From assembly GCA_964489145.1 (NCBI GenBank), contig CAZAXL010000001.1, positions 52,910-116,909 of the forward strand: a stretch of 64,000 nucleotides of DNA, given 5' to 3'. Position numbers and translations under genes: made by a program. Each line of letters starts with the position of its first letter. The stretch's first letter is position 1. Below, piece by piece: positions 43,860-63,850 of the stretch. This DNA comes from an uncultured Gammaproteobacteria bacterium. GTDB lineage: Bacteria; Patescibacteriota; Microgenomatia; UBA8517. The notes beneath the pieces were generated by a model. That model was given only the letters and a program-made list of their open reading frames with translations, was not told where the DNA came from and made no database searches.

Positions 43860-45848
43860 TCATAATCCAATTTTTATCTCCTTGTCGGTTGTCAGCTTAA
43901 ATTCCTCGGAATGCTTGCCAAGGTTCACTGTATACAAAAATCCGTCTGTACCCGGCTGTTTCTGTAAAAAGAGTTTATATTCTTTGCCGACTTTGAAAGG
44001 CAGCTTATATTTAAATGTGACTTTGGCAACCCCCTCAGGACGAAGCTGGAAAAAACCCGCGAATACTGTTTTTCCCAAATCTTCATAGGGTTCTGCCGTT
44101 GACTCCAATCCCTCAGCGGCAATAAGCTCGCTCCCTTTGGGAACATAAACTCTTACCCAGGTGGGCAGAACCGAGTTCAGCCAGCCGTCCTGTTTTTCGG
44201 GATTTTGGTATGTTATTGTGACCGTTTTTGTCACACTTCCGTCCCCGGCGACTTGAATATCCTGTTCGACATTTTCATAAGCATAAAGGTTGGATTTTCT
44301 ACCTCCAAGGTTTGCATCATTTATATGCAAATAGTCTCCGTCATAATTTTTTATCGTTCCGCTCAATCCAAAATCTGCAACGGCTTTTTGGACATTGTCA
44401 TCCAATAAATAGAAAAGGACATGCTTTTCCATTAAAGATTTAAATCCTGCCTGCAGGAGACCCGGGATTTTGTCCTTTGGCTGACCCATGGAGTTTGCCA
44501 AAATCGAATTCATTAAGGGCCCTATTATTTTCTTTCTGTTGTCGGAGTTCGGAGGCCTCTGAATAATTTTTCCGGTTATGGGATCCCAAATGACAGGGCC
44601 CTCGACATCGGCAAAGGCTTCGAGTTCGTGAATCACCTGGGCACAATTACATTCGGGGGACACCTCCGTACTGAAATTTCCGAACCCTGGTACCCCGATC
44701 GGCCCTATGACGTCCAGTATATTTACCAAAATTTGTGTGTCAACCGCAATTACGCCGTCAATGTCTCCCACCCCGGCCTTCTCGGCCGCGGGAACCACAA
44801 TTTTCATGCTTTCGACAAAGTCCGGCGACCAGTTCATATCCCTCAATCTCCATTTCTTCGACAAAATGTAAGGCCCTTTTATGTATTTAATGATCGGGTT
44901 AGGTGCGTCTACGGAAGATTTATAAACCGCATCAAGAGCATAAATATCATTGCTTGTGACAGTGCTCACCTTTGCCTTATCGACTTTCAAGATAGCATAA
45001 GCCGTCATAAACCCTCCGGTGGGCCTCAATTCCTTGTCATTTTGAAACAAGAGAAGATAGGTTCTTGGAGAGTCCATACCCAAAAGATACTGGGCAGACT
45101 CCAGGAAAGGCTTTCCGTTAACCAGAAATGTCGATGTTTCATTTACCGTGTCTACAATACTTTTAATTTGCGCCCTGACGGCTTTTCCCTGGACTTTCTC
45201 GGGATACCTGTTCGGGTTTATTTGTGAGATTTCGCCCTGAACCGTTTTCATTTTTCCTGAAATTGTATCGATTTGGGGAATGAGATCCGGAATTGTCTTG
45301 GCAATAAAGTCAATTCTATCCTCAGCGGTCTCTTCTCCTGTTTTTGCCCCCAAAACATTCTGGCCGCCGGCAAAGCCAAGCAAATCCGCATATGGTTCAA
45401 TTACCGTTAGAAGTGATTCCCCGACATCAAGTCCTGCCTGTCCCGCAGCAATCGCATGGCTTCCGTCGGCAATGTAGGCACCGATAAACGGTAAAAATTT
45501 TTCCCAGGCTACCAGTTTATATGTACCCGAAACGCTATTTAATAATTTTTTCGTGTTGCCCACTTCCGCCTTTATCTTCGCAAGATCCTGCGATTTGGCT
45601 GCTTGAGACAAAGTTTTGGCACCATTTACCAGTTTGGTTGTTTTTTGATAAATCAGAAGTCCCGATATAACATTGTAAACTAAGAGGACTGCGGCTGCCA
45701 ATAGGATCCATAGGGTTATTTTTACCCACACTTTCCTGGGCTTTACGGGATTTATTATTTCTTTAGCCTGTTTCTCCGGAGCAGGTTTTTGCACTATGTC
45801 ATTTTCGGCGACATTGATTTTCGGAACCAATATCGAGTCATTTTCCAT
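43860..45848 (-). CDS. Large membrane-anchored extracytoplasmic protein, DUF4012-like. First recognisable gene downstream of the glycan locus.
   Basis: 662 aa with a single N-terminal TM (WVKITLWILLAAAVLLVYNV) and a large soluble domain. The architecture resembles the DUF4012 family often found next to LCP/polysaccharide genes; the family call is from memory of domain organisation. Confidence 0.45.
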   Translation of the reverse strand: MENDSILVPKINVAENDIVQKPAPEKQAKEIINPVKPRKVWVKITLWILLAAAVLLVYNVISGLLIYQKTTKLVNGAKTLSQAAKSQDLAKIKAEVGNTKKLLNSVSGTYKLVAWEKFLPFIGAYIADGSHAIAAGQAGLDVGESLLTVIEPYADLLGFAGGQNVLGAKTGEETAEDRIDFIAKTIPDLIPQIDTISGKMKTVQGEISQINPNRYPEKVQGKAVRAQIKSIVDTVNETSTFLVNGKPFLESAQYLLGMDSPRTYLLLFQNDKELRPTGGFMTAYAILKVDKAKVSTVTSNDIYALDAVYKSSVDAPNPIIKYIKGPYILSKKWRLRDMNWSPDFVESMKIVVPAAEKAGVGDIDGVIAVDTQILVNILDVIGPIGVPGFGNFSTEVSPECNCAQVIHELEAFADVEGPVIWDPITGKIIQRPPNSDNRKKIIGPLMNSILANSMGQPKDKIPGLLQAGFKSLMEKHVLFYLLDDNVQKAVADFGLSGTIKNYDGDYLHINDANLGGRKSNLYAYENVEQDIQVAGDGSVTKTVTITYQNPEKQDGWLNSVLPTWVRVYVPKGSELIAAEGLESTAEPYEDLGKTVFAGFFQLRPEGVAKVTFKYKLPFKVGKEYKLFLQKQPGTDGFLYTVNLGKHSEEFKLTTDKEIKIGL

Positions 45849-45867
45849 GCATTAATAATACAACAAA

Positions 45868-46518
45868 TCAGACGGCTCCGACACCGCTAATCATTGCGAT
45901 TGGGGTTCTCAGGATAATGGCCAAGTCCATTAAGAGTGATTTCTTTCTGGCATAGTCCGCATCCATTTTTATTCTCTTGTCGAAATTGATATTGCTTCTC
46001 CCGGTTACCTGCCAAAAGCCGGTGATGCCCGGTTTTACCGTTTGAGTCTCTTTTACGTACGGCTCCGTCCCGGGATATCTTTTTTGCTGCTCGGCAAGCT
46101 CATCGGCATGATACGGACGGGGTCCTACTATACTCATCTCACCCTTTAAAACATTTAAAAATTGGGGCATTTCATCGATGGAATATTTTCTGATAAATTT
46201 TCCGAACCTGGTCACGCGTGGGTCCTCATGAAGTTTAAAACTGGACTTTTTATATTCGCTGTAAAGTTTTTTGAATCTGGGATCTTTTGTTAAAAGATAA
46301 TCGGCATTAACTGCCATCGAACGGAATTTGTAAAGCCTGAAAATTCTTCCCCCCCTGCCAATTCTTTTCATATGAATATTTGATTTTTCAACCAGGATAG
46401 GCCCGGAAGAAGTTAGTTTGATTACAAGAGCGGTAACAAGCATTAATGGAGAAAAAAGAACCAAAAGAAATATTGATAAGACAATATCCATACCTCTTTT
46501 AACAATTTCGTATAACAT
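45868..46518 (-). CDS. Initiating polyprenyl-phosphate sugar-1-phosphate transferase (bacterial sugar transferase, small PglC/WcaJ-C-domain type)
   Basis: KRGMDIVLS...FSPL N-terminus, KFRSM, DEMPQFLNVLKGEMSIVGPRP catalytic block. Confidence 0.85.
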   Translation of the reverse strand: MLYEIVKRGMDIVLSIFLLVLFSPLMLVTALVIKLTSSGPILVEKSNIHMKRIGRGGRIFRLYKFRSMAVNADYLLTKDPRFKKLYSEYKKSSFKLHEDPRVTRFGKFIRKYSIDEMPQFLNVLKGEMSIVGPRPYHADELAEQQKRYPGTEPYVKETQTVKPGITGFWQVTGRSNINFDKRIKMDADYARKKSLLMDLAIILRTPIAMISGVGAV

Positions 46519-46522
46519 ATTT

Positions 46523-47677
46523 TCAAAGAAGATTTACATTCTTTTCTTCTTTAAGTTGTTCCACAACTTTTTTGACGGATTGCGCGTGACTCTTGGAGCA
46601 AACCAAAAGCGCGTCTTTTGTATCAACCACTACGATGTTATCAAGGCCTACTACGGCAATCATTCTACCGTCGGAGTGTACCAGGGCATCGGTCGTGTCG
46701 ATGGTTAACACTTCTCCGCCGGGTTCATCCCCTGAAATTATTACATTGCTTTTATTGTCTTTTTTGGAATTCGCCCAAACTTCTCTCCAATCCCCTATAT
46801 CCGTCCAAAAAAAGTCGCCGGCGACAGCCAGGAAGTTCTTTTCCCTCTCGCTTATCGCATAATCAACGGATATCGCAGGCATTTTTTTATACTCGGATGC
46901 CATGACTCTTGCTTCATCGGCTTTGCCTATATGCGGCTTGATATCCTGAAGATTCTTATAGATTCCCGGCTGATGTTTTTTAAAAGAATTCAAAAGATCA
47001 TCCGCTCTCCACACGTATTGGCCCGCATTCCAAAGATATTTTCCGGATGCCGTATACTCCTTGGCCAGTTCAATGGGGGGCTTTTCGACAAATCCGTCCA
47101 GTTTATAAAAATCCACGTTTCCCTTTACCCTAACCTTATCTCCTTTTTTGATGTGTCCCAGACCCGTATGGGGATATCTTGGTTCAACCCCCATAGCAAT
47201 AAGCACATGCTTTTCATAAGCTTCTTTTGCTGCCCGGACTAAAGTTTCCAAATATCTTGAAATCGGCTTGACCACCCTGTCTGCCGCCTCGGTCATAATA
47301 ACCGCGTCGGGATCTTTTGATTCAATAAAGAGGGCGCCAAGTGCATGAGCCGGCCCTGTTTCGCGCCTGACCGGTTCGACAATAACATTTTCGGGGTGAA
47401 GCCTTGGATTTTCCCTGAGAACTTCTTTCTTATATTCCGGTGAAACTGTGACAATAAAGATTTTCTCCCAGGGAAGAATTTCAGCAAAACGTTTTACAGC
47501 AACCTGGGTTAAGGTTTGGTTATCAAAAAGTTTTAAAAATTGTTTTGGGGTTTTCTGTCTGGACCTGGGCCAAAGTCTTGTTCCACCACCGCCCGCTAAA
47601 ATCAATGCATAAAGATGATCTTTGTAGTTGCCGTTTTCCACTTTTTGTATTTTAGACAAAAATCCGAAAACTTTCAT
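46523..47677 (-). CDS. manC: Mannose-1-phosphate guanylyltransferase (GDP-mannose pyrophosphorylase)
   Basis: ALILAGGGGTRLWPRSRQKTPKQFL nucleotidyltransferase motif and left-handed helix C-terminal part. No PMI cupin domain. Confidence 0.8.
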   Translation of the reverse strand: MKVFGFLSKIQKVENGNYKDHLYALILAGGGGTRLWPRSRQKTPKQFLKLFDNQTLTQVAVKRFAEILPWEKIFIVTVSPEYKKEVLRENPRLHPENVIVEPVRRETGPAHALGALFIESKDPDAVIMTEAADRVVKPISRYLETLVRAAKEAYEKHVLIAMGVEPRYPHTGLGHIKKGDKVRVKGNVDFYKLDGFVEKPPIELAKEYTASGKYLWNAGQYVWRADDLLNSFKKHQPGIYKNLQDIKPHIGKADEARVMASEYKKMPAISVDYAISEREKNFLAVAGDFFWTDIGDWREVWANSKKDNKSNVIISGDEPGGEVLTIDTTDALVHSDGRMIAVVGLDNIVVVDTKDALLVCSKSHAQSVKKVVEQLKEEKNVNLL

Positions 47678-47683
47678 TAGCTA

Positions 47684-48805
47684 TTAGTTTAACATCTTTT
47701 TAGTTAAGTCAAGAAACTCTTTTTTAAATCTAGCTTTTGAAAACTTCCGGGCATTTTCGGTAAGTCGTTTTTTATCAAACTTCATTTTTTCAAATTTTCT
47801 GACTGCCCCAATTAGCATTTCGGGATTTTGTTTATCAAAAAGAATTCCGGTTTTTCCATTGATAACAGTGTCAAGTGATCCTCCTTTTTTATAGGCAATG
47901 ACGGGTACGCCGTAACTCTGGGCCTCTACGGCAACTATACCAAAATCTTCTTCCTGGGGCATAATAAGAGCCTTGGCATTTTGATAGTATTTAGCAAGCT
48001 TTGTTTCGGAAACCTCACCGACAAACTTTACATTTTCCTTGGCACTGCGCTTCAACCTCACTCTTTCACTTCCCGTTCCAACAACTATTAATGGGAGCCC
48101 CAATTGATTAAAAGCGGAAACTGCAAGATCAACTTTTTTATAAGGAACCAGTCTGTTTACAACCAAATAATATCCGTGTTTGCCGGCAGTTTTTGACCTG
48201 GGACTTTTAAATTCAACCGGAGGAAATATTACCTCTGAGTCGCGTTTGTAATATTTTCTTATTCTCCTTTTTACTTCGGTCGAAATAGCAATCATTTTGT
48301 CGGGCCGTTTTGCAGCTTTTACCTCCCATGTCTTAAGGTATCCGACAAAAGGTTTTGAGATTACACGAAAAAAAGGAAATATTTTAAAGTAAACCGGAGG
48401 GTTTTTAAAATAATAGTCATTTAAACTCCAGAGATATCTGGTTGGCGTTAAACAATAACAAATATGCAAAGTGCCGGGTTTGGTTTTTATACCCTTAGCA
48501 GCCTCCGACGTAACGCTAACCACCAGATCAAATTTGTCAAAATTAAATGATTCAAAGGCGACAGGCATCAACCAGCCGAAGAGTTCATGCAGTGACTTAA
48601 CAAGAGGAACCTCTTGCAAAAATGATGTCACAACTGCCGGAAAAGCTTTTGCCCAAGAAGCTTTTTTGGAATCATATACGGAAGTATAAAGGGGTGCGTC
48701 GGGAAAAATTTCATGAAGTGCCAGGAGAACGCGTTCAGCGCCTCCCCACTTATTGACCCTGTCGTATACTATCGCAACTTTTTGCGTAGGCTTCCAAAGT
48801 TTCAT
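47684..48805 (-). CDS. Glycosyltransferase family 4 (GT-B, retaining)
   Basis: N-terminal ...NKWGGAERV, C-terminal EDFGIVAVEAQSYGVPVIAYKKGGSLDTV (E-x7-E). Confidence 0.8.
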   Translation of the reverse strand: MKLWKPTQKVAIVYDRVNKWGGAERVLLALHEIFPDAPLYTSVYDSKKASWAKAFPAVVTSFLQEVPLVKSLHELFGWLMPVAFESFNFDKFDLVVSVTSEAAKGIKTKPGTLHICYCLTPTRYLWSLNDYYFKNPPVYFKIFPFFRVISKPFVGYLKTWEVKAAKRPDKMIAISTEVKRRIRKYYKRDSEVIFPPVEFKSPRSKTAGKHGYYLVVNRLVPYKKVDLAVSAFNQLGLPLIVVGTGSERVRLKRSAKENVKFVGEVSETKLAKYYQNAKALIMPQEEDFGIVAVEAQSYGVPVIAYKKGGSLDTVINGKTGILFDKQNPEMLIGAVRKFEKMKFDKKRLTENARKFSKARFKKEFLDLTKKMLN

Positions 48806-49877
48806 TCGCCATTTTAACCCAAGAATATTTATTTACAAATCCAATTGATTCCGAAATCATGTTATTCCGTTCGGATTCCTTTAGGAAAATAGCCTGTTCC
48901 ATTGTTTTTTCAATTGAATTGACGTCAAGTGGATCAAAATATAAAGCGTGTTCGGCATATATTTCTTTAAAAACCTTTATATTTGATGCCAAAAGTAAAG
49001 TTCCGGAGGCCATTGCTTCAAGTCCGGGAAGACCAAATCCTTCAGAGAGAGACGGAAAAACAAATCCTACGGAATTTTTATATAAACTTCCAAGTTTTTC
49101 ATCCGGAACAAATCCAAGGAGTTTTACTAATCCGTTTGCACCCCACTTTTGAACTTGTTTTTCTATTCTTTGGGTAAAAATATTCCTCGATGATGCAATT
49201 GCCAAAAACACCTTTTGGTTACTTTTTGTGTTCAATAGTTTTATGGCCTCGATTAGCCTTGATAAATTCTTGTGGGGATATGCGTTTCCTGTATATACAA
49301 AGTATGGCTTTGACATTTCAACTTCAGATCCCTCGGAGATTTTTCTATCAAATCCTTCATAAGTCACCTTTATTTTATCGGAATCCACTTTGTACTCTTC
49401 CGTCAGTTCATCCCTGACTGCATGGCTTGGCACTAGAATCATTTTTGACTTTTTAACCGCGTTATCGAATACAAATCTATACCCCAGTCTTTTAATAAAA
49501 TAAATCGGTGCGGGGAGTGTTGTCGCCGCAAGCCCCACGCTTTTATGCATCAGCATATCGTGAATCGTCACAATAAATTTACCTCTGAAAAATATGGGTA
49601 CATTAAAATGCGGAAAGTGAGTTATGTCGGGCTTTTCTTTTTTAATAATCCCGGGGATCATGATTTGTTCCGCGAAACTGTAATGCCGATAATCCGCCAA
49701 TATTTTTTTCCAATTATCCGGCAGCTTCAAAGAATCAAAATATTTTTTCCTGAGAAGAATAACATATTCGTTCTTTAAATCCAGCTTCGAAAGTTCGCCT
49801 ACAAGGTTAATTAAATATCTCCCCAAACCTGCATTTTCAAGCCCATAAAGACGGGCATCCAATAATATTTTTATCAT
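48750..49877 (-). CDS. Glycosyltransferase family 1/4 (GT-B)
   Basis: EGFGLPGLEAMASGTLLLASNIKVFKEI E-x7-E motif. The 3' end overlaps the next gene by 56 nt. Confidence 0.8.
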   Translation of the reverse strand: MIKILLDARLYGLENAGLGRYLINLVGELSKLDLKNEYVILLRKKYFDSLKLPDNWKKILADYRHYSFAEQIMIPGIIKKEKPDITHFPHFNVPIFFRGKFIVTIHDMLMHKSVGLAATTLPAPIYFIKRLGYRFVFDNAVKKSKMILVPSHAVRDELTEEYKVDSDKIKVTYEGFDRKISEGSEVEMSKPYFVYTGNAYPHKNLSRLIEAIKLLNTKSNQKVFLAIASSRNIFTQRIEKQVQKWGANGLVKLLGFVPDEKLGSLYKNSVGFVFPSLSEGFGLPGLEAMASGTLLLASNIKVFKEIYAEHALYFDPLDVNSIEKTMEQAIFLKESERNNMISESIGFVNKYSWVKMANETLEAYAKSCDSIRQGQ

Positions 49878-49884: not shown

Positions 49885-50766
49885 TTAGTATGAGGATAAT
49901 AGGACCACCTTGATATACCTAATTACTTTAAATACTTTTATCCCGAAAACAACAAAATAATCGAAAACCAGTGGATATTTTTTCCACAAATTCTTTCTGA
50001 AAAACCTTTCCATGGAAGTAACCCCTGCCAAACGGATTTTTTTACGCTGTTTGGGACTGACTTTATGTTTCCACTCCGAAACTTTGCCTTTGGTAACGCC
50101 TTTAAGATGAGTTACTGTTACCTCCGGATAATAAAAAATTTTGTAGCCGGCTTTGTGTATTTGGTAGCAAAGGTCAATGTCCTCCCCATCAAAAAAATAT
50201 TTTTCGTCAAACCAACCCACTTCATCCAACACCTTTTTCCGGGTCAAAAAGAAAGCACCCTGAATTGCTTCCACTTCATGGGTTATATTTTCGGAAATGT
50301 CTTCATACCAATAAGCCTTGCCGTTACCTAAAATTAAGTGCTGAAAGGCAATTTTAGGAGTAGGAAAACGGCGCCTGGTATCTTTATCCATTTTGCTGTT
50401 CGGAAGTACCAGTTTACAGGTTACCGCGCCAACATCAGGATGCTCTTTTAAAAATCTGACTGTCTCTGCAAAAACATTTTTGTGAACAATTGTGTCGGGA
50501 TTTAAAAAAAGAACCATTTCTCCGGCAACTAATGGCTTGGCACGGTTGTTGCCTTTGGAAAATCCCTCATTTGGTCCTTCGGTATACTTCACCCAGGGAA
50601 ATTTTTTCCGGATCATTTCGGGGCTCCCGTCGGCCGAAGAATTATCAGACACTATCACCTCCAAAGGCACCTCGTTAATGTGCGCCTTGACCGAATTAAG
50701 GCAGTCTTCCAATAGCTCTTTGGTATTGTAATTAAGAATTACTATCGTGAGTAGCGGTTTTTTCAT
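49885..50766 (-). CDS. Glycosyltransferase family 2 (GT-A). Start set at MKKPLLTIVILNYN (ATG 50764-50766); the track ORF extends to 50817.
   Basis: LLTIVILNYNT ... VIVSDNSSADGS (DxD-type) ... NPDTIV. Confidence 0.8.
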   Translation of the reverse strand: MKKPLLTIVILNYNTKELLEDCLNSVKAHINEVPLEVIVSDNSSADGSPEMIRKKFPWVKYTEGPNEGFSKGNNRAKPLVAGEMVLFLNPDTIVHKNVFAETVRFLKEHPDVGAVTCKLVLPNSKMDKDTRRRFPTPKIAFQHLILGNGKAYWYEDISENITHEVEAIQGAFFLTRKKVLDEVGWFDEKYFFDGEDIDLCYQIHKAGYKIFYYPEVTVTHLKGVTKGKVSEWKHKVSPKQRKKIRLAGVTSMERFFRKNLWKKYPLVFDYFVVFGIKVFKVIRYIKVVLLSSY

Positions 50767-51943
50767 ATATTTTGTCCAAATATTCCCCCATTTTATACCA
50801 ACTGAACTTTTGCTCAACCAGTTTTCTGGCGTTTTCCGCTATCTCTTTTGCCAATTTTTCGTCTTCCAGAATCCGTAAAGTCGCATCGGCAATTTCTTTG
50901 GAAGTGTCCCTGATTATTACTTCCCTGCCATCAGCCGCACCAAGGCCCTCAGCGCCCACCGATGTCGTAACCAAAGGCAGCTTTGCAGCCATTGCCGCCA
51001 AATGTTTAAGCCTGGTTCCTCCGGGTCCTCTAAGGGGTGAAACAAAAACTGAGGATTCGTAATAAGCATTTCTTATTCCTTCCTGATCGTCTTCGCTTAA
51101 ATTATCGATAATTATATTTTCAGATTTATATTTTAAAATTTCTTCAGGTATATGCTGACCAACAACCCAAACTTTTGCCTTGAAACTTTTGGCATGTACC
51201 CGCGGAAAAACCTCTTTTAGAAGAAGTTCGGCCGCTTCAACATTTTGCAGCCATTTGAAATTGGCAATAAAAAGAATTTTGGGTTCCGGTGAGCGCCAGC
51301 TATCCTTTTCTTTAAAGAAATCCAGATTTACCCCGTTCGGAACAAGGTTGACCTTAAGATCGGGGACCAATTTCAGCATTTCTTTCCTGTCCGACTCGGA
51401 TACCGCGACTACCCCGTCAGCTTTTTTCCAAAACTTCGTCTCCCAATATTTAAGCTTTGCGACATCAATTGATAAAAGAGAGCGTAATATGGGGTTTTTT
51501 ATCCCTTCCACATAATGTTTATAGACCAAGTACTCTATCGTCTGTTCGACCAAAAGGATCGGAGTCTTGGTTTCGGGAATATGAGGCATAACATAAAATG
51601 TTTCCGCGTGGATTAAGTCGTAATCAACCTGGGCAATTTCTTCCTGAACAGCTTTTGTTTCGTGGGGTGAGAGGTTTCTGATAACCAGGAAGGGGTAAGG
51701 CCCGAAACCGGTTAAAAGAATATTCCTTAAAGTCCATGGGGATTTCGAGCGTTTAAAAACTTTTACTTTTACACAATATTTTTCAAGTTCCGGAATAAAC
51801 TTTCTTTCAGAGTCATCTTTAATTAGGGAAAAAAGGGTGATTTTATGTTTCTTGCTTAAACCCTTAATTAAATTATAAGAACGTATCTGCCCGCCGGACG
51901 AATCCGGAAAGGGTAAGTAGGGGGTCAACATTAATATCTTCAC
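50732..51943 (-). CDS. Glycosyltransferase family 4 (GT-B)
   Basis: GT-B fold with C-terminal GLGAADGREVII... block. 403 aa. Confidence 0.75.
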   Translation of the reverse strand: MKILMLTPYLPFPDSSGGQIRSYNLIKGLSKKHKITLFSLIKDDSERKFIPELEKYCVKVKVFKRSKSPWTLRNILLTGFGPYPFLVIRNLSPHETKAVQEEIAQVDYDLIHAETFYVMPHIPETKTPILLVEQTIEYLVYKHYVEGIKNPILRSLLSIDVAKLKYWETKFWKKADGVVAVSESDRKEMLKLVPDLKVNLVPNGVNLDFFKEKDSWRSPEPKILFIANFKWLQNVEAAELLLKEVFPRVHAKSFKAKVWVVGQHIPEEILKYKSENIIIDNLSEDDQEGIRNAYYESSVFVSPLRGPGGTRLKHLAAMAAKLPLVTTSVGAEGLGAADGREVIIRDTSKEIADATLRILEDEKLAKEIAENARKLVEQKFSWYKMGEYLDKIYEKTATHDSNS

Positions 51944-56229: not shown

Positions 56230-56834
56230 TACTGAAATAGTCTTGCCCGACCAAGAATGTAATGAGGATTTCTTTCTCTCCTTTCTCCGATTTTACCTGC
56301 AGGAACTCCGCCGACAATTGTAAACTCGGGAACATCTTTTGTTACAACCGCCCCTGCAGCGATAACGGCTCCCTTTCCGATTTTAACTCCGGGAAGAATG
56401 ATTGCCCTGGGACCAACAAAAACATAATCGCCAATTTCCACAGGCTCAGTTCTGGCTGAAAATTTTTCACTCTCCAAATCGTGTTCGGAGTTATAAATCA
56501 TTACCGATGAGGCAATGTCTACATGGCTGCCGATGGTTAACGCCGCTCTGCCATCCAAGAAAGCGTGATCTCCGACAATGGTGTCTTCGCCGATGGAAAT
56601 ACCGGAAGGGTCAAAAAAGTTGGCCCACATATGAACCGTCGACCCTTTCCCGATTTTCATTCCGGAAAGTTTATAAATTATTTTTCGAAAAGCGTGGGAT
56701 GGAACATGGGAAACCCACCGGAGCGTCATCAACTCAAAATCAAGAATAACATTACTGATCCTATCCAAGATTTTCGATAATGCTTCTTTAGCTGATAACT
56801 GCCTGCCCGTTTTATCTCTAAACATATGTTTCAA
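56229..56834 (-). CDS. Left-handed beta-helix (hexapeptide-repeat) acetyltransferase, probably a sugar O/N-acetyltransferase
   Basis: Hexapeptide repeats IGEDTIVGDHAFLDGRAALTIGSHVDIASSVMIY...VFVGPRAIILPGVKIGKGAVIAAGAVV. Confidence 0.8.
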   Translation of the reverse strand: MKHMFRDKTGRQLSAKEALSKILDRISNVILDFELMTLRWVSHVPSHAFRKIIYKLSGMKIGKGSTVHMWANFFDPSGISIGEDTIVGDHAFLDGRAALTIGSHVDIASSVMIYNSEHDLESEKFSARTEPVEIGDYVFVGPRAIILPGVKIGKGAVIAAGAVVTKDVPEFTIVGGVPAGKIGERRERNPHYILGRARLFQ

Positions 56835-56889: not shown

Positions 56890-58026
56890 TCATAATTTTG
56901 TTATTACCTCCAAGGTTTCTCTAGCTGTTTTCTCCCAGGAAAACTTTTTAGCTTGAGCTAAACCTGCTTCTTTCATACTATTATACTTCGCAATGGGTGC
57001 CAAAAGCACCTTGGTAATCCCCTCGGCAATACTATCTGTACTTTTGGGGTTAATCAGTATCCCGGCATCCCCAACCACCTCAGGCAAGCTTCCTATGTTT
57101 GAGGCAACTACAGGCACGCCGCTAGCCATGGCATTTAGGACATCGAGCCCAAATCCCTCCCAAAATGAAGGCAGGACAAATACTTTCGCACCCTTGATCA
57201 GTCCGGGCTTGTCTTCCTCAGGAACAAAATCCGTAAATATTACTTTATCTTCCATTCCTAGTTTTTTGACTTTTTCAAAAATAGATTCATACATCCAGCC
57301 CTTTTTTCCGGCAATTACCAGCTTTAAATTGGAAATTTTTAATTTATCATTAGTAATTACGGCCTTAAAGGCCGTTAGAAGGCTTTCGACATTCTTACTG
57401 GGCTTGAGAGTACCCAAATATAATACATAGTCCGTAACTATGGAGTACCTATCCCTTACACGTCGCACATCTTTTTCGGAAACACTCATATTGAACTTCA
57501 TACTGTCATATGCAAGAGGGGTAACGTAAATCTTATCTTTAGCTGAGGGGTAGTGTCGTACAATGTCGTTTTTTGTACTATTTGATATAGCAAAGACCGC
57601 TTTTGATACAAAAATGCTAATGGCACTCCATAACTTTAACTGCCAAAAGTCCTTTTTTCGAAATTGTCCCGAGAATTCGAGGTATCCAAGGTCCATAATT
57701 GAACAAAACCTGGGTATTGGGGCAATAGGAGGTGCGTAGTGGCTTGGGGAAAAGAAAACATCGCACCTGGGGTCCCCCGAAAACAGGCTCGGGGTAAGCT
57801 TGGTCAGTATCCATGCCCCCCCACCCTTAATCACTTTGTACCTGAAGAACTTCGTCTCCTTCGGTAAGTCCGCTCTAGACTCATTTTTAAGAAAAACTAT
57901 AAGTTTATGGTTATTTTTCCATTCGTCTTGTAGTTTCCAGAAATTCCACAGAAGCTCATAGGCATAAGTGTTCACTCCTACCCTTTTTTCAACATTAGCC
58001 TCGTTTCCGTCGATGCCAATAATCAT
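56890..58026 (-). CDS. Glycosyltransferase family 4 (GT-B)
   Basis: EGFGLDVLNAMASGVPVVASNIGSLPEVVGDAGILINP. Confidence 0.8.
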   Translation of the reverse strand: MIIGIDGNEANVEKRVGVNTYAYELLWNFWKLQDEWKNNHKLIVFLKNESRADLPKETKFFRYKVIKGGGAWILTKLTPSLFSGDPRCDVFFSPSHYAPPIAPIPRFCSIMDLGYLEFSGQFRKKDFWQLKLWSAISIFVSKAVFAISNSTKNDIVRHYPSAKDKIYVTPLAYDSMKFNMSVSEKDVRRVRDRYSIVTDYVLYLGTLKPSKNVESLLTAFKAVITNDKLKISNLKLVIAGKKGWMYESIFEKVKKLGMEDKVIFTDFVPEEDKPGLIKGAKVFVLPSFWEGFGLDVLNAMASGVPVVASNIGSLPEVVGDAGILINPKSTDSIAEGITKVLLAPIAKYNSMKEAGLAQAKKFSWEKTARETLEVITKL

Positions 58027-59081
58027 TTTTGTCCCTCCTTGTATACATCAAGTGTCATTTGTGCGGTCTTTTCCCAGGAAAAGTTTCTAACGCGCAGTTT
58101 CCCCTTATCAATAAGTCCTTTTCCTCCACGAACCACTTTTGCAATCCCTTCGGCAATTGAGTTCACAGAATTAGGATCGACCAGTTCCGCAGCGTTTCCA
58201 GCAACTTCAGGCATAGAACCTATATTTGAGGTAATTACCGGCACTTCGCAGGTAAATCCGTCCAGAATCGGAATTCCATAACCCTCATAAAGCGAGGCAA
58301 AAATTAAGCCCCTTGAACCACTGAGAAGCGCGGCCAAGTCACTTTGGGGAATGTGCCCGAGTATCCTGACGTTTCTCTCCGGCTCAATTTTAATGCCCGA
58401 TGGTCTTCCTGCAATTATCAGTTTCAGGTCTTTCCCAGGAGTGGCCAGGTGAAATGCTTTTATTATCTTCTTGGTATTTTTCAGGGGTGTAACTCCAATT
58501 GAAATAAAATAATCCTCCCTTATCTGATATTTCTTTTTTATCTCCAAAACTTTTTCTTCATCGACCTTCTTCATAGACGGAGCCTCGGGAATCACACGAA
58601 TTATATCCTCCCTAACCCCCAAGTCGACTAGGTCATTTTTTGTAGAAACTGAAGGAACGATTATCCTTTTGCTTTCTTTAATCACCCAGTAAAGTCTTCT
58701 CTTGTGAACCTCCAGTGTCTTGGAGTGTACCAGCCTGGGAAACTTCAAGGGATAAAGGTCGTGTACCGTTGTTACCTTAAAAGAACTGCTGGGGGGCTCC
58801 GACCAGTCGGAAGTGTGGAGAACATCTACTTCACCAATTAATTTTTCGATCGGAAAGGTGTGAAGCCTGTTCCAGATAAAGTCTGCTGCAATCGGCGGAA
58901 TAGGAAAAACTTTAGAGTTGGGAAACGCTTCCAAAATCTCCTGACGCCTCCTGAAAGCCCCAGCAAAGAGTACATATTCATTTTCCCGATCAAGTGTAAG
59001 CAAAGTCTCAATCAGCTTTCTGGTGTAGACAGAAACACCCGTTCCGTAAACAATTTGACTGATGTCGATTGCAATTTTCAA
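58023..59081 (-). CDS. Glycosyltransferase family 4 (GT-B), tandem paralogue of the preceding gene
   Basis: EGYGIPILDGFTCEVPVITSNIGSMPEVAGNAAELVDP. 4-nt overlap with the 56890-58026 gene. Confidence 0.8.
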   Translation of the reverse strand: MKIAIDISQIVYGTGVSVYTRKLIETLLTLDRENEYVLFAGAFRRRQEILEAFPNSKVFPIPPIAADFIWNRLHTFPIEKLIGEVDVLHTSDWSEPPSSSFKVTTVHDLYPLKFPRLVHSKTLEVHKRRLYWVIKESKRIIVPSVSTKNDLVDLGVREDIIRVIPEAPSMKKVDEEKVLEIKKKYQIREDYFISIGVTPLKNTKKIIKAFHLATPGKDLKLIIAGRPSGIKIEPERNVRILGHIPQSDLAALLSGSRGLIFASLYEGYGIPILDGFTCEVPVITSNIGSMPEVAGNAAELVDPNSVNSIAEGIAKVVRGGKGLIDKGKLRVRNFSWEKTAQMTLDVYKEGQK

Positions 59082-59085: not shown

Positions 59086-60429
59086 TTATTTTATATACTT
59101 CCAAAACTCAACGCCGTTCAGGTTCAGTTCCTGGACTTTATTATATCCTAAATTTTCGATTTTAATCCGCGCCATGTCCTTGGAATCAAATATCTGCCAG
59201 ACATACCTCGATAACCAAACCTCTGCAAGGTCTCTCCCTACGGAATCGAAATTCTCGAAGTAGATTATTTGTCCTCCTTTTTGGTAATAGGTAAGTGCTT
59301 CTTCTTGTGAATTTGAGGGATAAATTATAGCGTCTGCGCCAACAGCTTCCGCAACTGCCCTCCAATTTTCCCTTTGGAACTTTGGATTAAATAAATATAG
59401 AGAGGATGAGGCAATATTTATCAAAATGGCTGTGGATAAAAATATCCAAAACGTTTTACCTTTCAAACTTGTAATTCCTCCAGCCGCCAAAATGTAAAAA
59501 GCAGGAAGACAAAAAAGAAATCTGAAATAGTAAAGAATAGGAATCTTAATGCTTATCAAAATACCCAGGAGAATCGGTATGATGAGCCATGCCCAAACCA
59601 CCTTGTAGGGTCGGACCTTTAAAGGTCGTCGCACAACTAATAGGAAAGAATACAAAAGAACAGAAGCCAACGAAACCGCGCCATATAAAATTTTATTATT
59701 AAAGCTGATCCTTCCGAATATAAATTTAACAGGGATCAATGCGATATTTTTAAGCGAGATTGTACCTAGTAGGTTCCACCAGGCCGATCCCTGCACCGAA
59801 AACCCTCCCGAAAGTTGGCTCAAGAACGTTGGCAGCCAGGCTATCAATATAATAAAAAGCGGAATGTGGGCCAGAGCCAATTTTTTCCAGTCCTTATATC
59901 CTAGAAGCCAAAAAACCGGAATAATCAGAAGAGAAACATAATCGGTCATCGCCAGGATGGGTAGAAAAATAGAAAAAAGCACCCATTTCTTTTCCAGAAA
60001 TAGATAAAAAAGCAGGGTAGCCAAAAATGCGGCTAAAGAGTACATTCTGGCTTCTTGTGAGTAATAAATTAAAAGGCCGGACGTTGCCGCCAATATTGAG
60101 GCAATTCTTGCAGTTTTGTTATCAAATATTTTTTTGGCAATGAGATAAATAAAATAAATTGTCAGAATACCAAAAATAACAGAGGGGGTCCGGAGAGAAA
60201 TTTCAGACAACCCAAAGAGGCTACCCCACCCTTTCATTAAAAGATAATAAAGCGGGGGATGGAAATCTCCCGGTAGAAATTTGGTAAAAATATCCGCCAA
60301 AGGCATCTTAGCCGCAAGAGCAGTTGTTGCCTCATCAAGCCAAAGAGATTGATTAATGGATATCAGACGAAGTAGTAAACCTACAAACAAAGTCAGTGGC
60401 AGTCCGTTTTTTAGAAGAAATTTTTTCAC
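59086..60429 (-). CDS. GT-C fold membrane glycosyltransferase (PMT/ArnT-like) with DE motif in the first loop
   Basis: 447 aa polytopic. NQSLWLDEATTALAA (DE motif of PMT-like GT-C enzymes) after TM1. Confidence 0.65.
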   Translation of the reverse strand: MKKFLLKNGLPLTLFVGLLLRLISINQSLWLDEATTALAAKMPLADIFTKFLPGDFHPPLYYLLMKGWGSLFGLSEISLRTPSVIFGILTIYFIYLIAKKIFDNKTARIASILAATSGLLIYYSQEARMYSLAAFLATLLFYLFLEKKWVLFSIFLPILAMTDYVSLLIIPVFWLLGYKDWKKLALAHIPLFIILIAWLPTFLSQLSGGFSVQGSAWWNLLGTISLKNIALIPVKFIFGRISFNNKILYGAVSLASVLLYSFLLVVRRPLKVRPYKVVWAWLIIPILLGILISIKIPILYYFRFLFCLPAFYILAAGGITSLKGKTFWIFLSTAILINIASSSLYLFNPKFQRENWRAVAEAVGADAIIYPSNSQEEALTYYQKGGQIIYFENFDSVGRDLAEVWLSRYVWQIFDSKDMARIKIENLGYNKVQELNLNGVEFWKYIK

Positions 60430-61283
60430 TTTGATCCTCTTTTTGTGATTATGTATTCCAGAATACCCACAAAAATGCCAAAATCATAAACTAATTTAAA
60501 AATCATAAATTTTAAATTTAATGTTAAGAGAGATTTATAAATCCCCACAATCAGAGAAACGGGTAGTGATGCCCTAATTAAACCAGTAAAACTTCCAAAA
60601 ATTCCGAATTTGTATTTCCTCTTCCCTACCCACTTTGCATGGTTAAATATTTCACCCGGGCTTGATGGATTTTTATGGTAGAAGACGGCACCTGGTGCCA
60701 TAACCGCTTCATAGCCAAGCTTCCTACTCAGACTCCAATCGTCATCATATCCCCCTGGAGTAAACCCACCGACTTTATCAAATTCACTTTTCAGAATTGC
60801 CCTAAAAACAGGCTGGTGATCGGGGAAGTTTTTGGGGTGGCGACGTTTCTCCTCCCACCCCTCATTTATGTTCCAGCATCTTGACCAGGGATTGTCCCAG
60901 TTGGATACAATTTCTTCTTTACTGAAAGTTCCCCTTGCTCCGCGAAGCCTTGGCGAAGTGGAGTTTGTTACTATTGGCTCAATCAATTTTCCCAGAAACT
61001 CTTTGTCAAAAGTCATGTCTGCATCCACAAAAACCAGAATTTCCCCATTCGCGTGCCCTGCCCCCAAATTTCTTGCCGCACCGGCCCCCACGTGCTTCGC
61101 ACGCAATTTTCGAATTTCGAATTTCGAATTTCGAATTTCCGATAATAACTGCCAAGTGTTATCGGTTGAGCCGTCATCAACAACAATAATTTCAAAATCA
61201 GTCAAAGTTTGAAACCCCAAAGATTCTATACAATCGGATAATACTTTTTCTTCGTTGTATGTGGGAATTATTACTGAAATCAT
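60426..61283 (-). CDS. Glycosyltransferase family 2 (GT-A). Contains an in-frame heptanucleotide repeat tract.
   Basis: MISVIIPTYNEEK...EIIVVDDGSTDNT...GAGAARNLGAGHANGEILVFVDADM. Confidence 0.8.
   Translation of the reverse strand: MISVIIPTYNEEKVLSDCIESLGFQTLTDFEIIVVDDGSTDNTWQLLSEIRNSKFEIRKLRAKHVGAGAARNLGAGHANGEILVFVDADMTFDKEFLGKLIEPIVTNSTSPRLRGARGTFSKEEIVSNWDNPWSRCWNINEGWEEKRRHPKNFPDHQPVFRAILKSEFDKVGGFTPGGYDDDWSLSRKLGYEAVMAPGAVFYHKNPSSPGEIFNHAKWVGKRKYKFGIFGSFTGLIRASLPVSLIVGIYKSLLTLNLKFMIFKLVYDFGIFVGILEYIITKRGSK
61108..61139. repeat. Tandem heptanucleotide repeat (TTCGAAT)x~4.5 (also readable as TTTCGAA or CGAATTT) inside the GT2 coding sequence; encodes SEIRNSKFEIRKL
   Basis: Plus strand 61104-61140: caattt TCGAATT TCGAATT TCGAATT TCGAATT tcc. 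The unit length of 7 is not a multiple of 3. Confidence 0.8.
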
Positions 61284-62221
61284 TTTTTTAGTTCATTAAA
61301 CAAGTCTTCATACTTTTTGGCGATTTCGTCCCAGGAAAACTTTTTTGCCTGTTCTCTTGGTTTGCCTTCCCAATTTTGATTCAGTGCTTTCTCGATCGCC
61401 TTGGCATAGGCCTTTGTGTCCATCGGGTCCACGAGAATCCCTGCCTCCCCAACAATCCCGCTCCTGACAGGATCATTTGTTGCCACAACCGGCAAATTGG
61501 TGGCCATCGCTTCAACTAAAACATTTCCGAAAGACTCAGACGGCCTTGAGGGAAGTGTAAACACATCTGCGGCTCTATAGACCTCCGGCATTTTTTCAAA
61601 AGGAACCGATAAAAGTTCAAATCTGTCCTTACCTAAAATCTTTTCTCCATATCTTTCCAGCTCTCTCCTAAGCTCGCCTCCCCCGCCAACCATTAAAAGG
61701 CTTACCCCGGGAAGTTTGGCGACAGCTTTAATCGACAAATCCATTCTTTTTTGAGGAGTAAAAGCACCTCCACAAAGAACCATAGGGTTTTTAATCCTTG
61801 TTTTATACGCTCTCCCTTTTGGATTAAATTTAGTTAGGTCCACTCCGTTTGGAATATACAAAGATTTAACGCGGGGGTTGACCTCCTTTGCCCAAGCTAG
61901 AGCTTTCTTGGAAAGCGCGACAAAAGCATTGGGGCATGAATACAAATTCACTTTATCATCCCAACCCATTCCGGACTGTCCCGAAACTACCATTTTGGCT
62001 CCGGTCAGTAGGGAAATAATCCTAACCAGGACAACCTGGAATCTTCCGTTTGTCGGAATAATTACATCGTATTTGCCTTTCAGAAGGTTCAAATAGTTAA
62101 TATCTGCGATAACATCAACCTTGTAGTGCTCGGACAGGCGATTCGAAAGCTCAAAGACAAAAGTCTCCGCACCTCTGGCAACCCTATTCTGGTATTTATT
62201 CAAAATCGCTATTTTCATCAC
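61280..62221 (-). CDS. Glycosyltransferase family 4 (GT-B)
   Basis: ESFGNVLVEAMATNLPVVATNDPVRSGIVGEAGILVDP. ATGA overlap with the GT2 gene. Confidence 0.8.
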   Translation of the reverse strand: MMKIAILNKYQNRVARGAETFVFELSNRLSEHYKVDVIADINYLNLLKGKYDVIIPTNGRFQVVLVRIISLLTGAKMVVSGQSGMGWDDKVNLYSCPNAFVALSKKALAWAKEVNPRVKSLYIPNGVDLTKFNPKGRAYKTRIKNPMVLCGGAFTPQKRMDLSIKAVAKLPGVSLLMVGGGGELRRELERYGEKILGKDRFELLSVPFEKMPEVYRAADVFTLPSRPSESFGNVLVEAMATNLPVVATNDPVRSGIVGEAGILVDPMDTKAYAKAIEKALNQNWEGKPREQAKKFSWDEIAKKYEDLFNELKK

Positions 62222-62499
62222 GTTAGAGAAAGAAAACGTTTTAACCTATTTTTTAAATATCTTCTTCCCATACCCGATTTTAAATACTTTTCTCTAGCAA
62301 ATCCATCAAGCTTGTTAAGACAAGCTTCATAATATATCAACTCAAATGGACCTCTACCTTTTGTGTAAGTGGATTTGTCATTTTGATGCTCAATAAAACG
62401 TTTTCGTAGATTATTTGTACAACCAATGTACCATTTACTAGACTTTAGACTTCTCAAAACGTAAACGTATTGGTATTTGAGTTCTCTAACGTGATACAT
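62218..62499 (-). CDS. Small stand-alone GIY-YIG nuclease-domain protein (UPF0213/YhbQ-like)
   Basis: 93 aa: YQYVYVLRSLKSSKWYIGCTNNLRKRFIEHQN (GIY...YIG-type with conserved R and E) ... N at the end of the core. Overlaps both flanking genes (4 nt and 14 nt). Confidence 0.75.
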   Translation of the reverse strand: MYHVRELKYQYVYVLRSLKSSKWYIGCTNNLRKRFIEHQNDKSTYTKGRGPFELIYYEACLNKLDGFAREKYLKSGMGRRYLKNRLKRFLSLT

Positions 62500-63850
62500 A
62501 CTGTTTTTTGATCAAAATCTCGACCCCGTCAACCTTACCACTTAGTTTATAATTTTCCGTGACAAAATTGTAAACCTTTTGGGGAATATATGATGAAAGA
62601 CCGGACATTGTATAGGAATTGTAAATTATCATTTTCGGCGGATTTGCTTTCAGATCCTCCACTATTTTTTCCTGTACCCCGGGAATCTCCATGTACCAGG
62701 AAAGCTGCGGAACCCAGGGGTCGGTAGCCGGCAACGTATCTGTTAGCGCATATATGTTGTCCCACCAGTTCAGAACAAATATTCTATCCCCTGGCTTTGT
62801 GTTGTAGTTTACAAATGTCACAACATTGGCAACATTGGCTTCGTAAAATCTGGTACCTTCCTTAAAATTTCTCATGAAAAAGCCCGCGAAAAGAATTATT
62901 GAAACGGTAATGTAAACCGGAACAAATGGTTTGAATAACTTTTTTTCCTTTTTGACTTTTTCAAACACCAATCCTGTTGCAATTGCCAAAAAGGGAACTA
63001 CCGGCTGAAAATGGAAAAATTCAAACCTGGGAAACGCCCCGAGACCTCCGGCAATTGCCCAAAGTAATATATCAAGATTTTTGCGGCCGGATTTTAGAAC
63101 AAGTGGAATAAAAACCAGAAACGGGAATATTGCCACAGCCAGATTCTTGAAATCCGGGAGCTGAATTTGCCCCTGGGCTTTGGGAAGAATGAAAATTCCA
63201 AATTTTACAGCCCAGTTCCAGAAGTCCGACAAGATTCCAAATGCGGCAAGAATTACTATAAAGGGAACTATAATGGCAAGCGTTCCCGGAATAAAACTTC
63301 GGATATTCTTTTTAACCTTTAACCATTTACCATTAACCATTTCTAATCCTATGGGGATTAGAAACCAAACTGCAGTTTGCTTGGAGATAAAAGCCAATGC
63401 CCAGAAAACTCCCGTCCAAAGCCATTTTTTCTGCCTTGCAAAGTAGAAAGAACAAAAGGCCATTAGACCCATATAAAGATCGAACCAGAGTCCGTTGCCG
63501 TCGTAGAAAAGGTTCCAGAAGGCAAATACCCCAAGTGTAATAAATGCGGCTTTTATATTCCAAAGTTTTCTGACAAGGGTAAAGACGAGGCAGTCAAAAA
63601 TCAGAATCAGGAGCCAAGTAAATATTTTCAGTTGAAGTATTCCTGAACCAAAAATTTTATAGAAGATGCCCAGGTCAATCAGCATGAGAGGTGTGTGTGC
63701 TATAGCAATATCTTTATAGGGCAGCCATCCTTTTGCAATAAGGTATGGCCAAAGGCTCATTTCCGGCCAGGCAGTAAACTTTAAAACCATAAGAAGAAGC
63801 AAATGTATTAACAAAATTCCTACTAGTAAAAAATAGTCTCTTCTTTTCAT
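62486..63850 (-). CDS. Polytopic membrane protein with a C-terminal ~140-aa extracytoplasmic domain; GT-C-like glycosyltransferase candidate
   Basis: 454 aa, about 11 TM. Topology and size resemble GT-C enzymes; no DE motif was identified with confidence. Confidence 0.45.
   Translation of the reverse strand: MKRRDYFLLVGILLIHLLLLMVLKFTAWPEMSLWPYLIAKGWLPYKDIAIAHTPLMLIDLGIFYKIFGSGILQLKIFTWLLILIFDCLVFTLVRKLWNIKAAFITLGVFAFWNLFYDGNGLWFDLYMGLMAFCSFYFARQKKWLWTGVFWALAFISKQTAVWFLIPIGLEMVNGKWLKVKKNIRSFIPGTLAIIVPFIVILAAFGILSDFWNWAVKFGIFILPKAQGQIQLPDFKNLAVAIFPFLVFIPLVLKSGRKNLDILLWAIAGGLGAFPRFEFFHFQPVVPFLAIATGLVFEKVKKEKKLFKPFVPVYITVSIILFAGFFMRNFKEGTRFYEANVANVVTFVNYNTKPGDRIFVLNWWDNIYALTDTLPATDPWVPQLSWYMEIPGVQEKIVEDLKANPPKMIIYNSYTMSGLSSYIPQKVYNFVTENYKLSGKVDGVEILIKKQYVSR

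Follow-up and report, generated by a model that had tools for sequence, protein, structure and literature searches.

We analyzed an array of glycan genes that occupies positions 43860-63850 of a 64,000-nucleotide stretch of contig CAZAXL010000001.1 (this whole stretch is referred to as the window). The array is the larger part of an operon-like locus of ~26 kb and ~21 genes, which constitutes a Wzx/Wzy_C pathway with multiple glycosyltransferases (GTs) of the GT-C type. The pathway is of a known kind; what is new is a lineage-wide core envelope locus of the candidate phyla radiation (CPR) with four unrelated GT-C enzymes in one operon. CPR bacteria (Patescibacteria) have tiny genomes and are thought to live attached to host cells. 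To our knowledge, there is no experimental knowledge of their envelope glycans, and our literature search found nothing specific to CPR glycan loci.

Gene content of the locus and its continuation past the window

All genes of the array lie on the minus strand and overlap or are separated by at most 55 nt, as counted on domain-bearing open reading frames (ORFs) of at least 100 aa. The array encodes a DUF4012 protein, a small priming phosphoglycosyl transferase (PGT), ManC, six GT4 and three GT2 glycosyltransferases, an acetyltransferase, a Wzy_C-family protein, and three PMT_2 (GT-C) proteins, and every Pfam match in this inventory exceeded the gathering threshold. An earlier reading of the window made from the sequence alone (the sequence-only reading) had listed the PGT and the genes from ManC to the three GT-C enzymes, and this list was confirmed; it had omitted a 181-aa membrane protein and a GIY-YIG ORF. 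Including the genes located beyond the window end, the order is GT-C4, Wzx, GT2d, GT-C3, GT4f, GT2c, GT-C2, GT4e and GT4d, the acetyltransferase, the 181-aa protein, GT2b, Wzy_C, GT-C1, GT4c, GT2a, GT4b and GT4a, ManC, PGT, and DUF4012.

Inside the window, Pfam scans of the encoded proteins found neither a Wzx flippase nor an ABC-2 exporter, and the sole ABC system was an ABC-3 metal-type transporter (41752-43225). The sequence-only reading had taken the locus to be devoid of a flippase or exporter and to continue past the window end. To follow the continuation, we used public contigs, 21 of which carry the exact GT-C3 protein (L numbers denote the loci compared here). L003 was 100% identical to the window across 1,517 shared bases and L001 was 97% identical, and L001, L002, and L003 were mutually 99.7-99.96% identical across 11.4 kb; because of this near-identity, they were taken as stand-ins for the continuation, a locus position x corresponding to window position 73851 - x. 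GT2d, of which only the 3' end lies in the window (63881-64000, minus strand), is 280 aa in full (window-equivalent 63881-64723, minus strand) and stands upstream of GT-C3. A Wzx/MOP flippase of 428 aa with ~10 transmembrane (TM) helices follows at window-equivalent 64819-66105 (Polysacc_synt, 86.5 bits, E 2.6e-24, scan of the L003 proteins), at a distance of 819 nt from the window end and belonging to the same array. The fourth GT-C enzyme, GT-C4 (523 aa; PMT_2, 37.4 bits), is encoded at window-equivalent 67620-69191, and farther upstream are genes for a short-chain dehydrogenase/reductase (SDR)-type epimerase, a GT2, a sugar C-methyltransferase, and a GT4, followed by more genes. The locus thus extends past the window as had been expected, and the absence of a flippase, true of the window itself, is an artefact of the window edge. 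Arguments from a missing component are unsafe where a window edge cuts a locus.

A toxin-like RhuM/Fic-DOC gene and a 23S_rRNA_IVP four-helix-bundle gene (L003 6288-7742, window-equivalent ~66109-67563) separate GT-C4 from Wzx here; GT-C4 abuts Wzx in most other genomes.

The final gene of the array encodes the DUF4012 protein (662 aa; 43860-45848). Preceding it are the small monotopic PGT, the priming enzyme (216 aa; 45868-46518; Bac_transf, 203.8 bits), whose C-terminal catalytic domain was matched by the NCBIfam models EPS_sugtrans (255.9 bits), WbaP, and WcaJ, and the mannose-1-phosphate guanylyltransferase ManC (46523-47677; NTP_transferase and ManC_GMP_beta-helix), which scored 295 bits against TIGR01479, under the cutoff since it is without the phosphomannose isomerase part. 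The GT4 enzymes are GT4a (47684-48805; Glycos_transf_1, 117.5 bits), GT4b (48750-49877; Glycos_transf_1, 95.7 bits), GT4c (50732-51943; Glyco_trans_1_4 and Glyco_transf_4), GT4d (56890-58026; Glycos_transf_1, 130.6 bits), GT4e (58023-59081; Glycos_transf_1, 75.7 bits), and GT4f (61280-62221; Glycos_transf_1, 92 bits). The GT2 enzymes inside the window are GT2a (49885-50817; Glyco_tranf_2_3 and Glycos_transf_2), with a single C-terminal hydrophobic helix in the TM scan, GT2b (54765-55691; Glycos_transf_2, 68.1 bits), and GT2c (60426-61283; Glycos_transf_2, 119 bits), with two C-terminal TM helices. The polytopic proteins comprise GT-C1 (489 aa, ~8 TM helices; 51946-53415; PMT_2, 48.7 bits), the Wzy_C-family protein (471 aa, ~10 TM helices; 53405-54820; Wzy_C, 34.8 bits with a cutoff of 31.7), GT-C2 (447 aa; 59086-60429; PMT_2, 44 bits), and GT-C3 (454 aa; 62486-63850; PMT_2, 30 bits with a cutoff of 26.1). 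A left-handed β-helix (LbH) O-acetyltransferase, WcaF-like, is encoded at 56229-56834 (Hexapep; NCBIfam WcaF family, 101 bits).

The 181-aa protein (55684-56229) consists of a TM helix, ~125 aa outside, and a second TM helix, and matched nothing in Pfam, NCBIfam, or the PDB sequences, also when a 32-member profile was used. In topology it is reminiscent of small CpsC-type regulators; as a candidate for a minimal chain-length regulator it was rejected, since the 32-member profile gave no Wzz signal. The GIY-YIG ORF (93 aa; 62218-62499; 50.6 bits), homing-endonuclease-like, overlaps both GT-C3 and GT4f and, among genomes with the locus, is confined to close relatives of the window; it is probably a lineage-specific insertion outside the pathway.

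Conservation across Microgenomates

Homologues of GT-C2, DUF4012, and the LytR-CpsA-Psr (LCP) protein encoded nearby carry the names Candidatus Woesebacteria, Microgenomates, or Patescibacteria. The order from Wzx to ManC was identical in three genomes with GT-C2 at 58-68% identity. A fourth related locus contained ManC, PGT, DUF4012, RecO, and ABC-3, and farther on LCP and MraZ; as these are the neighbours seen in the window, the flanks are syntenic too.

To survey the lineage, we scanned GTDB species representatives with a Wzy_C alignment, which returned at least 555 relatives, and used the best 80 loci, species-level genomes with Wzy_C identities of 38-97%, as the conservation set. These loci come from Woesebacteria, Blackburnbacteria, Daviesbacteria, and unclassified Patescibacteria, and a BLASTP comparison between their ORFs and the proteins of the window revealed a single colinear order. 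When only loci whose fetched DNA covers the expected gene position were counted, GT4e (60/60 loci), the acetyltransferase (66/66), and GT4c (67/67) were present throughout, followed by GT-C1 (69/70), the 181-aa protein (66/67), GT4d (64/65), and GT-C2 (55/58). GT4a was found in 56 of 60 loci, PGT in 52 of 57, GT2a in 60 of 66, GT4b in 57 of 63, and GT2b in 60 of 68; the corresponding values were 49/58 for a gene at the ManC position, 41/51 for GT4f, and 33/54 for GT2c. Most components were kept in 85-100% of loci.

The head of the locus was examined in a metagenome scan with a Wzx alignment, which yielded 25 contigs with downstream sequence (Wzx identity 30-100%). GT2d comes after Wzx in all 25, followed by GT-C3, GT4f, GT2c, GT-C2, and so on as far as the sequence reaches, and GT-C4 usually abuts Wzx. 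Wzx and the four GT-Cs are constant members of the conserved unit. The stretch upstream of GT-C4/Wzx is variable and contains mobile or toxin-like insertions.

These comparisons of encoded sequences identify the locus as part of the conserved genomic backbone of Woesebacteria and of Microgenomates related to them. They also bear on the reading of the locus as an ordinary strain-variable Wzx/Wzy capsule or exopolysaccharide (EPS) locus in which the GT-Cs are incidental. The standard parts list of such loci (PGT, Wzx, Wzy_C, many GTs, and an acetyltransferase) is found here, and the variable segment upstream of Wzx with its mobile or toxin-like insertions would suit it. We rejected this reading, which we regard as highly improbable, on the basis of cross-species colinearity: in 80 species-level genomes from several candidate orders, the core keeps its colinear order and is almost complete, the GT-Cs are among its most constant members, and the flanking housekeeping genes are syntenic as well. 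In addition, the window and the ~12 kb past its end yielded neither a polysaccharide copolymerase (PCP) nor a tyrosine kinase. Instead of the serotype-like variability expected of such loci, the locus is conserved across a whole branch of the CPR superphylum. A colinear locus of ~26 kb, corresponding to ~2-3% of a ~1-Mb genome and kept across Woesebacteria, Blackburnbacteria, and Daviesbacteria, implies a core component of the envelope. It offers a concrete target for reconstitution in a heterologous host, for probes such as antibodies or lectins, and for the interpretation of cryo-electron tomography.

Several variations were observed within the set. At the ManC position, ~22 of 58 genomes (L018, L021, L023, L028, L036, and others) hold a gene only 25-36% identical to ManC, that is, a different nucleotidyltransferase. 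The glycan of the genome represented by the window probably contains mannose, and judging from these sequences the mannose assignment may fail across the wider lineage. In some genomes, a Peptidase_S51 gene is located between the acetyltransferase and 181-aa genes (L007 14126-14749; L009 14197-14823). The Wzx of L007 (CP066686.1; 1281-2570) occupies the conserved head position and is only 23% identical to the Wzx of the window lineage, while its neighbours are 55-70% identical, which suggests flippase replacement or rapid divergence. Many GTDB records with the locus (L013-L092) are titled 'uncultured Gammaproteobacteria bacterium', one Bathyarchaeia, and one Nevskiaceae; these titles are unreliable for taxonomy.

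GT-C enzymes, GT2c, and the Wzy_C protein

GT-C1, GT-C3, and GT-C4 were assigned to the GT-C enzymes by their PMT_2 matches only. For GT-C2, we obtained structural information by AlphaFold (AF2) modeling from 54 homologues, with a predicted local distance difference test score (pLDDT) of 88.7 and a predicted template modeling score (pTM) of 0.89. Foldseek matched this model to ArnT (E 7e-7), ALG12 (TM-score 0.61/0.57), STT3, PglB, Pmt4, ALG9, PimE, Emb, and AftB. These structural matches showed 11-19% identity (~12-14% for the full-length ones), and the best of them were all GT-C enzymes dependent on polyprenyl-(P/PP)-sugars; Pmt4 and Pmt1-2 matched less well than ArnT, ALG12, and STT3. As judged from the predicted structure, GT-C2 is a bona fide GT-C-fold enzyme.

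Two motifs that the sequence-only reading had pointed out, DE and W-x-x-RQ-x-D, proved real and conserved. The former belongs to the motif LWLDEA in the first outer loop of GT-C2, in which D32 and E33 are invariant in 54 homologues, and is invariant in GT-C2 alone; the latter lies in the GT-C1 motif ADWHSWRQAD, at least 90% conserved among 72 orthologues. GT-C3 contains the conserved motifs AWPE, GNgLWFD, and KQTA, and acidic or aromatic motifs of the first outer loop are conserved within each of the four GT-Cs. Pairwise phmmer comparisons detected no significant similarity among the four enzymes or to E. coli ArnT or YfdI, and GT-C2 and its 54-member profile had no sequence relatives in the PDB. 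The GT-Cs matched PMT_2 only, the GT39-specific domains PMT (PF02366) and PMT_4TMC being absent even at E<=10. NCBIfam provided sub-threshold hints only (Agl23, MT1671, and AZOBR_p60025), including a GT-C2 match to the model of the mycobacterial polyprenyl-phosphomannose (PPM)-dependent mannosyltransferase MT1671 with E 1.7e-10, far below the cutoff. Family assignment stopped at PMT_2 and Wzy_C, with neither a PglL-like domain nor a placement in GT39, GT83 (ArnT), or GT87 (PimE-type) at the sequence level; the likeness of GT-C2 is structural and equally remote from several families.

Some of these matches recall a membrane-anchored lipoglycan or glycolipid like mycobacterial lipomannan and lipoarabinomannan, for which polyprenyl-P-mannose derived from GDP-mannose would feed the GT-Cs as mannosyltransferases that lengthen a lipid-anchored glycan outside the membrane, and the Wzy_C protein would ligate an Und-PP (undecaprenyl-diphosphate)-linked block to lipid in the manner of WaaL. 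ManC within the locus, the weak MT1671 match of GT-C2, the presence of the Dol-P-Man enzymes ALG12 and ALG9 among its best structural matches, and a weak sub-threshold NCBIfam match of the Wzy_C protein to RfaL are in line with this. Both the MT1671 and RfaL matches, however, are far below the family thresholds, the ManC position is filled by a nucleotidyltransferase of <=36% identity in ~22/58 genomes, no acyltransferase or gene for lipid-anchor synthesis is encoded in the locus, and the LCP protein and the LCP-like fold described below point to wall attachment. We consider a lipoglycan improbable.

Next, we focused on GT2c as a candidate source of sugar donors for the GT-Cs. Its TM helices at 228-246 and 257-275 are unique to GT2c among the GT2s of the locus and coincide in position with those of E. 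coli GtrB (YfdH) and ArnC in the TM scan. A hidden Markov model of the GT2c orthologues scored 41.8 bits against ArnC and 27.8 bits against GtrB, with <=12 bits for the other three GT2 families, and hhalign gave probabilities of 98.3% (ArnC) and 96.8% (GtrB) for an alignment of the generic N-terminal ~105 aa only. The gene overlaps the start of GT-C2 by 4 nt, indicating translational coupling. GT2c is thus a plausible polyprenyl-phosphate sugar synthase from its sequence features, and the pairing of a GT2 with a GT-C, proposed in the sequence-only reading, was upheld for GT2c and GT-C2. In the loci without GT2c (L025, L028, L030, L036, L037, and others), two adjacent GT-Cs are found instead, one GT-C2-like (30-43% identity) and one GT-C3-like (~25% identity).

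The GT2c architecture coupled to a GT-C resembles that of GtrA/GtrB/GtrC and ArnC/ArnT/ArnEF (PMC11127046), and the best structural E-value of GT-C2 was to ArnT. Unlike those systems, the locus contains no GtrA- or ArnE/F-type flippase, the sequence likeness is limited to the GT-A N-terminus, and no GT-C matches ArnT or YfdI in sequence. A further parallel is provided by the dual-chain assembly of the lactococcal rhamnose-rich cell wall polysaccharide and its polysaccharide pellicle (Rha-CWPS/PSP) and by Streptococcus pyogenes GacI/J/K/L, in which a GT2-made undecaprenyl-phosphate (C55-P)-sugar is handled by a Wzx-type flippase, not GtrA, and a GT-C polymerizes sugars or transfers them onto another polymer outside (PMC10821137, PMC8035078). 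The single Wzx of the locus could serve C55-P-sugars, as do GacK and WpsG (PMC8035078, PMC10821137). In contrast to the lactococcal and Gac systems, the locus has no rhamnan ABC-transporter arm, a Bac_transf PGT and Wzy_C are also present, and GT2c has its own TM helices with no evident GacJ/WpsB-like partner.

The Wzy_C family covers O-oligosaccharyltransferases (O-OTases), polymerases, and ligases. In the protein encoded here, Wzy_C was the only domain match even at E<=10, PglL_A and Wzy_C_2 being absent, no sequence relative was found in the PDB, and hhalign of 78 orthologues against E. coli WaaL was not significant; an H-to-D difference at the WaaL "HN" motif, seen by eye, was too weakly aligned and was not used. 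The last 11 nt of the Wzy_C gene are shared with the start of GT-C1, and this pairing is near-universal in related loci.

The sequence-only reading had favored flippase-less O-glycosylation. This lost its premise with the finding of Wzx, and the PglL- and GT39-specific domains that would mark it were absent at E<=10. Its successor is general protein O-glycosylation, in which a Wzx-flipped Und-PP-oligosaccharide of ~ten or more sugars would be transferred en bloc to proteins of the cell surface, for example S-layer proteins or pilins, either by the Wzy_C protein as a PglL/PilO/WsaB-type O-OTase or by an LCP-type enzyme, with the GT-Cs adding sugars outside. The membership of O-OTases in the Wzy_C family speaks for it, as do the lack of a chain-length regulator in the window and ~12 kb beyond, a number of cytoplasmic transferases that suits a single large glycan over a repeat unit, and a strictly conserved transferase set that resembles general glycosylation loci more than serotype-variable ones; moreover, an LCP enzyme of Actinomyces oris is able to glycosylate protein (PMC6381275). 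PglL/PilO/WsaB systems likewise combine a Wzy_C-family membrane protein with a Wzx flippase, Bac_transf-type priming, and no chain-length regulator. They differ from the locus in that the latter has no PglL_A or Wzy_C_2 domain and no identified acceptor and possesses LCP or LCP-like genes and four GT-Cs foreign to those systems. The lack of PglL_A/Wzy_C_2 even at E<=10, of a GT39 signature (PMT, PMT_4TMC) in any GT-C, and of evidence for an acceptor protein or sequon, together with the voiding of the original lack-of-flippase argument, renders protein O-glycosylation a minority reading that we judge unlikely.

DUF4012, LCP proteins, and the proposed pathway

The sequence-only reading had also connected a nearby LCP ligase and the DUF4012 protein with wall attachment, and this idea gained support from both proteins. 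A canonical LCP protein is encoded on the plus strand at 37250-38458 (LytR_cpsA_psr, 101.8 bits; probable start 37421), on the strand opposite to the locus and 5.4 kb away from its end. The gene is in the same relative position in a genome whose DUF4012 is 65% identical. This proximity is weak evidence because the whole neighbourhood is syntenic.

The AlphaFold model of the DUF4012 protein (pLDDT 76) consists of an N-terminal TM helix, a long helical bundle (39-255), an α/β domain (~260-500), and a C-terminal β-sandwich. The predicted fold matched ten LCP crystal structures, and the top Foldseek match was likewise an LCP, 3pe5 (E 2.4e-3); we predict an LCP-like fold for DUF4012 on the basis of this model. 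The best, insignificant hhalign path repeatedly aligned the DUF4012 segment IDGIIAVDT..L..LGPIGV with the LCP segment INYFVSVDF..I..LGGITV, and E273, R275, D337, D343, R438, and K439 are conserved across the family. A claim of homology was dropped to one of fold-level resemblance, as every sequence and profile test was negative. Like LCP phosphotransferases (PMC7831098), DUF4012 has an N-terminal TM anchor, an extracytoplasmic α/β domain, and a matching predicted fold, and like many LCP genes it is encoded beside a glycopolymer cluster. It differs from them in its additional long helical bundle and C-terminal β-sandwich and in having no significant similarity to them by sequence or profile. 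With 10,908 cluster representatives at E<=1e-3, the family is large, and it is common to CPR and Gram-positive bacteria (PMC6744442); in an EPS cluster of Bifidobacterium longum, DUF4012 adjoins the priming transferase, with a separate Wzz also there (PMC5412050). For this family, the predicted LCP-like fold suggests a function that can be tested.

Taking these data together, we consider it probable, at roughly 0.55, that the product of the locus is a complex, acetylated glycan of the cell envelope, assembled on undecaprenyl carriers, flipped by Wzx, processed by the Wzy_C protein, decorated on the outside by the GT-Cs, and then joined to the wall. In this pathway, the small PGT, from its family assignment, would load a sugar-1-phosphate onto undecaprenyl phosphate (Und-P). 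The cytoplasmic GT4 and GT2 enzymes and the LbH acetyltransferase would extend the unit, with ManC supplying GDP-mannose, and Wzx, whose gene is present and conserved, would carry the Und-PP-linked unit outward. The Wzy_C protein, translationally coupled to GT-C1, would then polymerize or ligate units. GT2c would make a polyprenyl-P-sugar, plausibly polyprenyl-P-mannose, and the four mutually unrelated GT-Cs, among which GT-C2 has the modeled GT-C fold, could draw on such donors when attaching residues or branches on the outer face, following the logic of multi-component transmembrane glycosylation. Finally, an LCP-type enzyme, which could be the canonical LCP protein (37250-38458), DUF4012, or both, would move the finished glycan from Und-PP to peptidoglycan.

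The components expected of a Wzx/Wzy pathway include a Bac_transf priming transferase and Wzx, both found in the locus, the latter outside the window. Wzx/Wzy processing, GT-C decoration, and LCP attachment are combined in the Bacillus anthracis secondary cell wall polysaccharide (SCWP) and in lactococcal and streptococcal rhamnose polysaccharides (PMC8035078, PMC10821137). The B. anthracis SCWP system (PMC8035078) resembles the pathway proposed here in the assembly of a lipid-linked unit inside the cell, Wzx-type flipping, Wzy_C-like processing, GT-C decoration from C55-P-sugars, LCP attachment, and a monoderm-like host. Unlike it, the locus has four unrelated GT-Cs and ~ten cytoplasmic transferases in one colinear operon, priming by a Bac_transf PGT rather than a TagO-type enzyme, no GtrA-type flippase, and DUF4012 ending the operon.

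Several observations weigh against a polymerized, GT-C-decorated, and wall-attached glycan. GT2c is absent from 21/54 related loci (~40%) that retain a GT-C2-like gene, and its likeness to ArnC and GtrB is confined to the generic N-terminal ~105 residues; no GtrA-type flippase was found, nor any small ORF with 3-4 TM helices in the window or L093. The sequence data on the Wzy_C protein seem to fit a polymerase and a ligase or O-OTase alike. Neither a Wzz/PCP chain-length regulator nor a tyrosine kinase was detected among the window genes or in ~12 kb past its end; the sequence-only reading had held that an exporter together with such a regulator just outside the window would mark an ordinary polysaccharide locus, and only the exporter, Wzx, was found. 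With ~ten cytoplasmic transferases, a Wzy-polymerized repeat unit would have to be very large, and the strict cross-species conservation is unlike that of typical Wzy-dependent capsule or O-antigen loci. At the attachment step, housekeeping genes separate the canonical LCP from the locus in a neighbourhood that is syntenic as a whole. The DUF4012-LCP (PF03816) probability in hhalign was 0.2-1.2% with three DUF4012 profiles (A2, its 250-510 sub-alignment, and a 102-member diverse alignment), and DUF4012 had no LCP match in hmmsearch against the PDB or when 51 of its members were scanned with Pfam (E<=10).

Because of the missing chain-length regulator, the many transferases, and the strict conservation, en bloc glycosylation of protein or lipid is retained as an unlikely rival. 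We also entertain, as a speculative possibility, a Microgenomates-wide general glycosylation machine in place of a polysaccharide pathway. In it, one defined glycan of at least 10 sugars, flipped by Wzx and finished outside by the four ancient, unrelated GT-Cs, would be passed on unpolymerized to surface proteins or to an acceptor other than peptidoglycan; the Wzy_C protein would carry out this transfer, together with or replaced by DUF4012 as a so far unrecognized, highly divergent branch of the LCP-type phosphotransferases.

Outside the locus, the window consists of a housekeeping backbone with a dcw/mur cluster, aminoacyl-tRNA synthetases, ParB, RecO, the ABC-3 metal transporter, and the LCP gene. 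Scans of the window for Rfam families and tRNAs returned nothing, and a promoter and terminator scan performed no better than on shuffled sequence. Within the mur cluster, a 349-aa ORF without a Pfam family (19145-20194, minus strand) is located between a MurD-like ligase and glutamate racemase, and a 669-aa protein (23702-25711, minus strand) comprises the middle and C-terminal domains of a Mur ligase fused to a C-terminal sugar-nucleotidyltransferase domain. A HAD-hydrolase/GNAT acetyltransferase fusion (25775-26947) is encoded by the sole plus-strand gene of this cell-wall cluster stretch.

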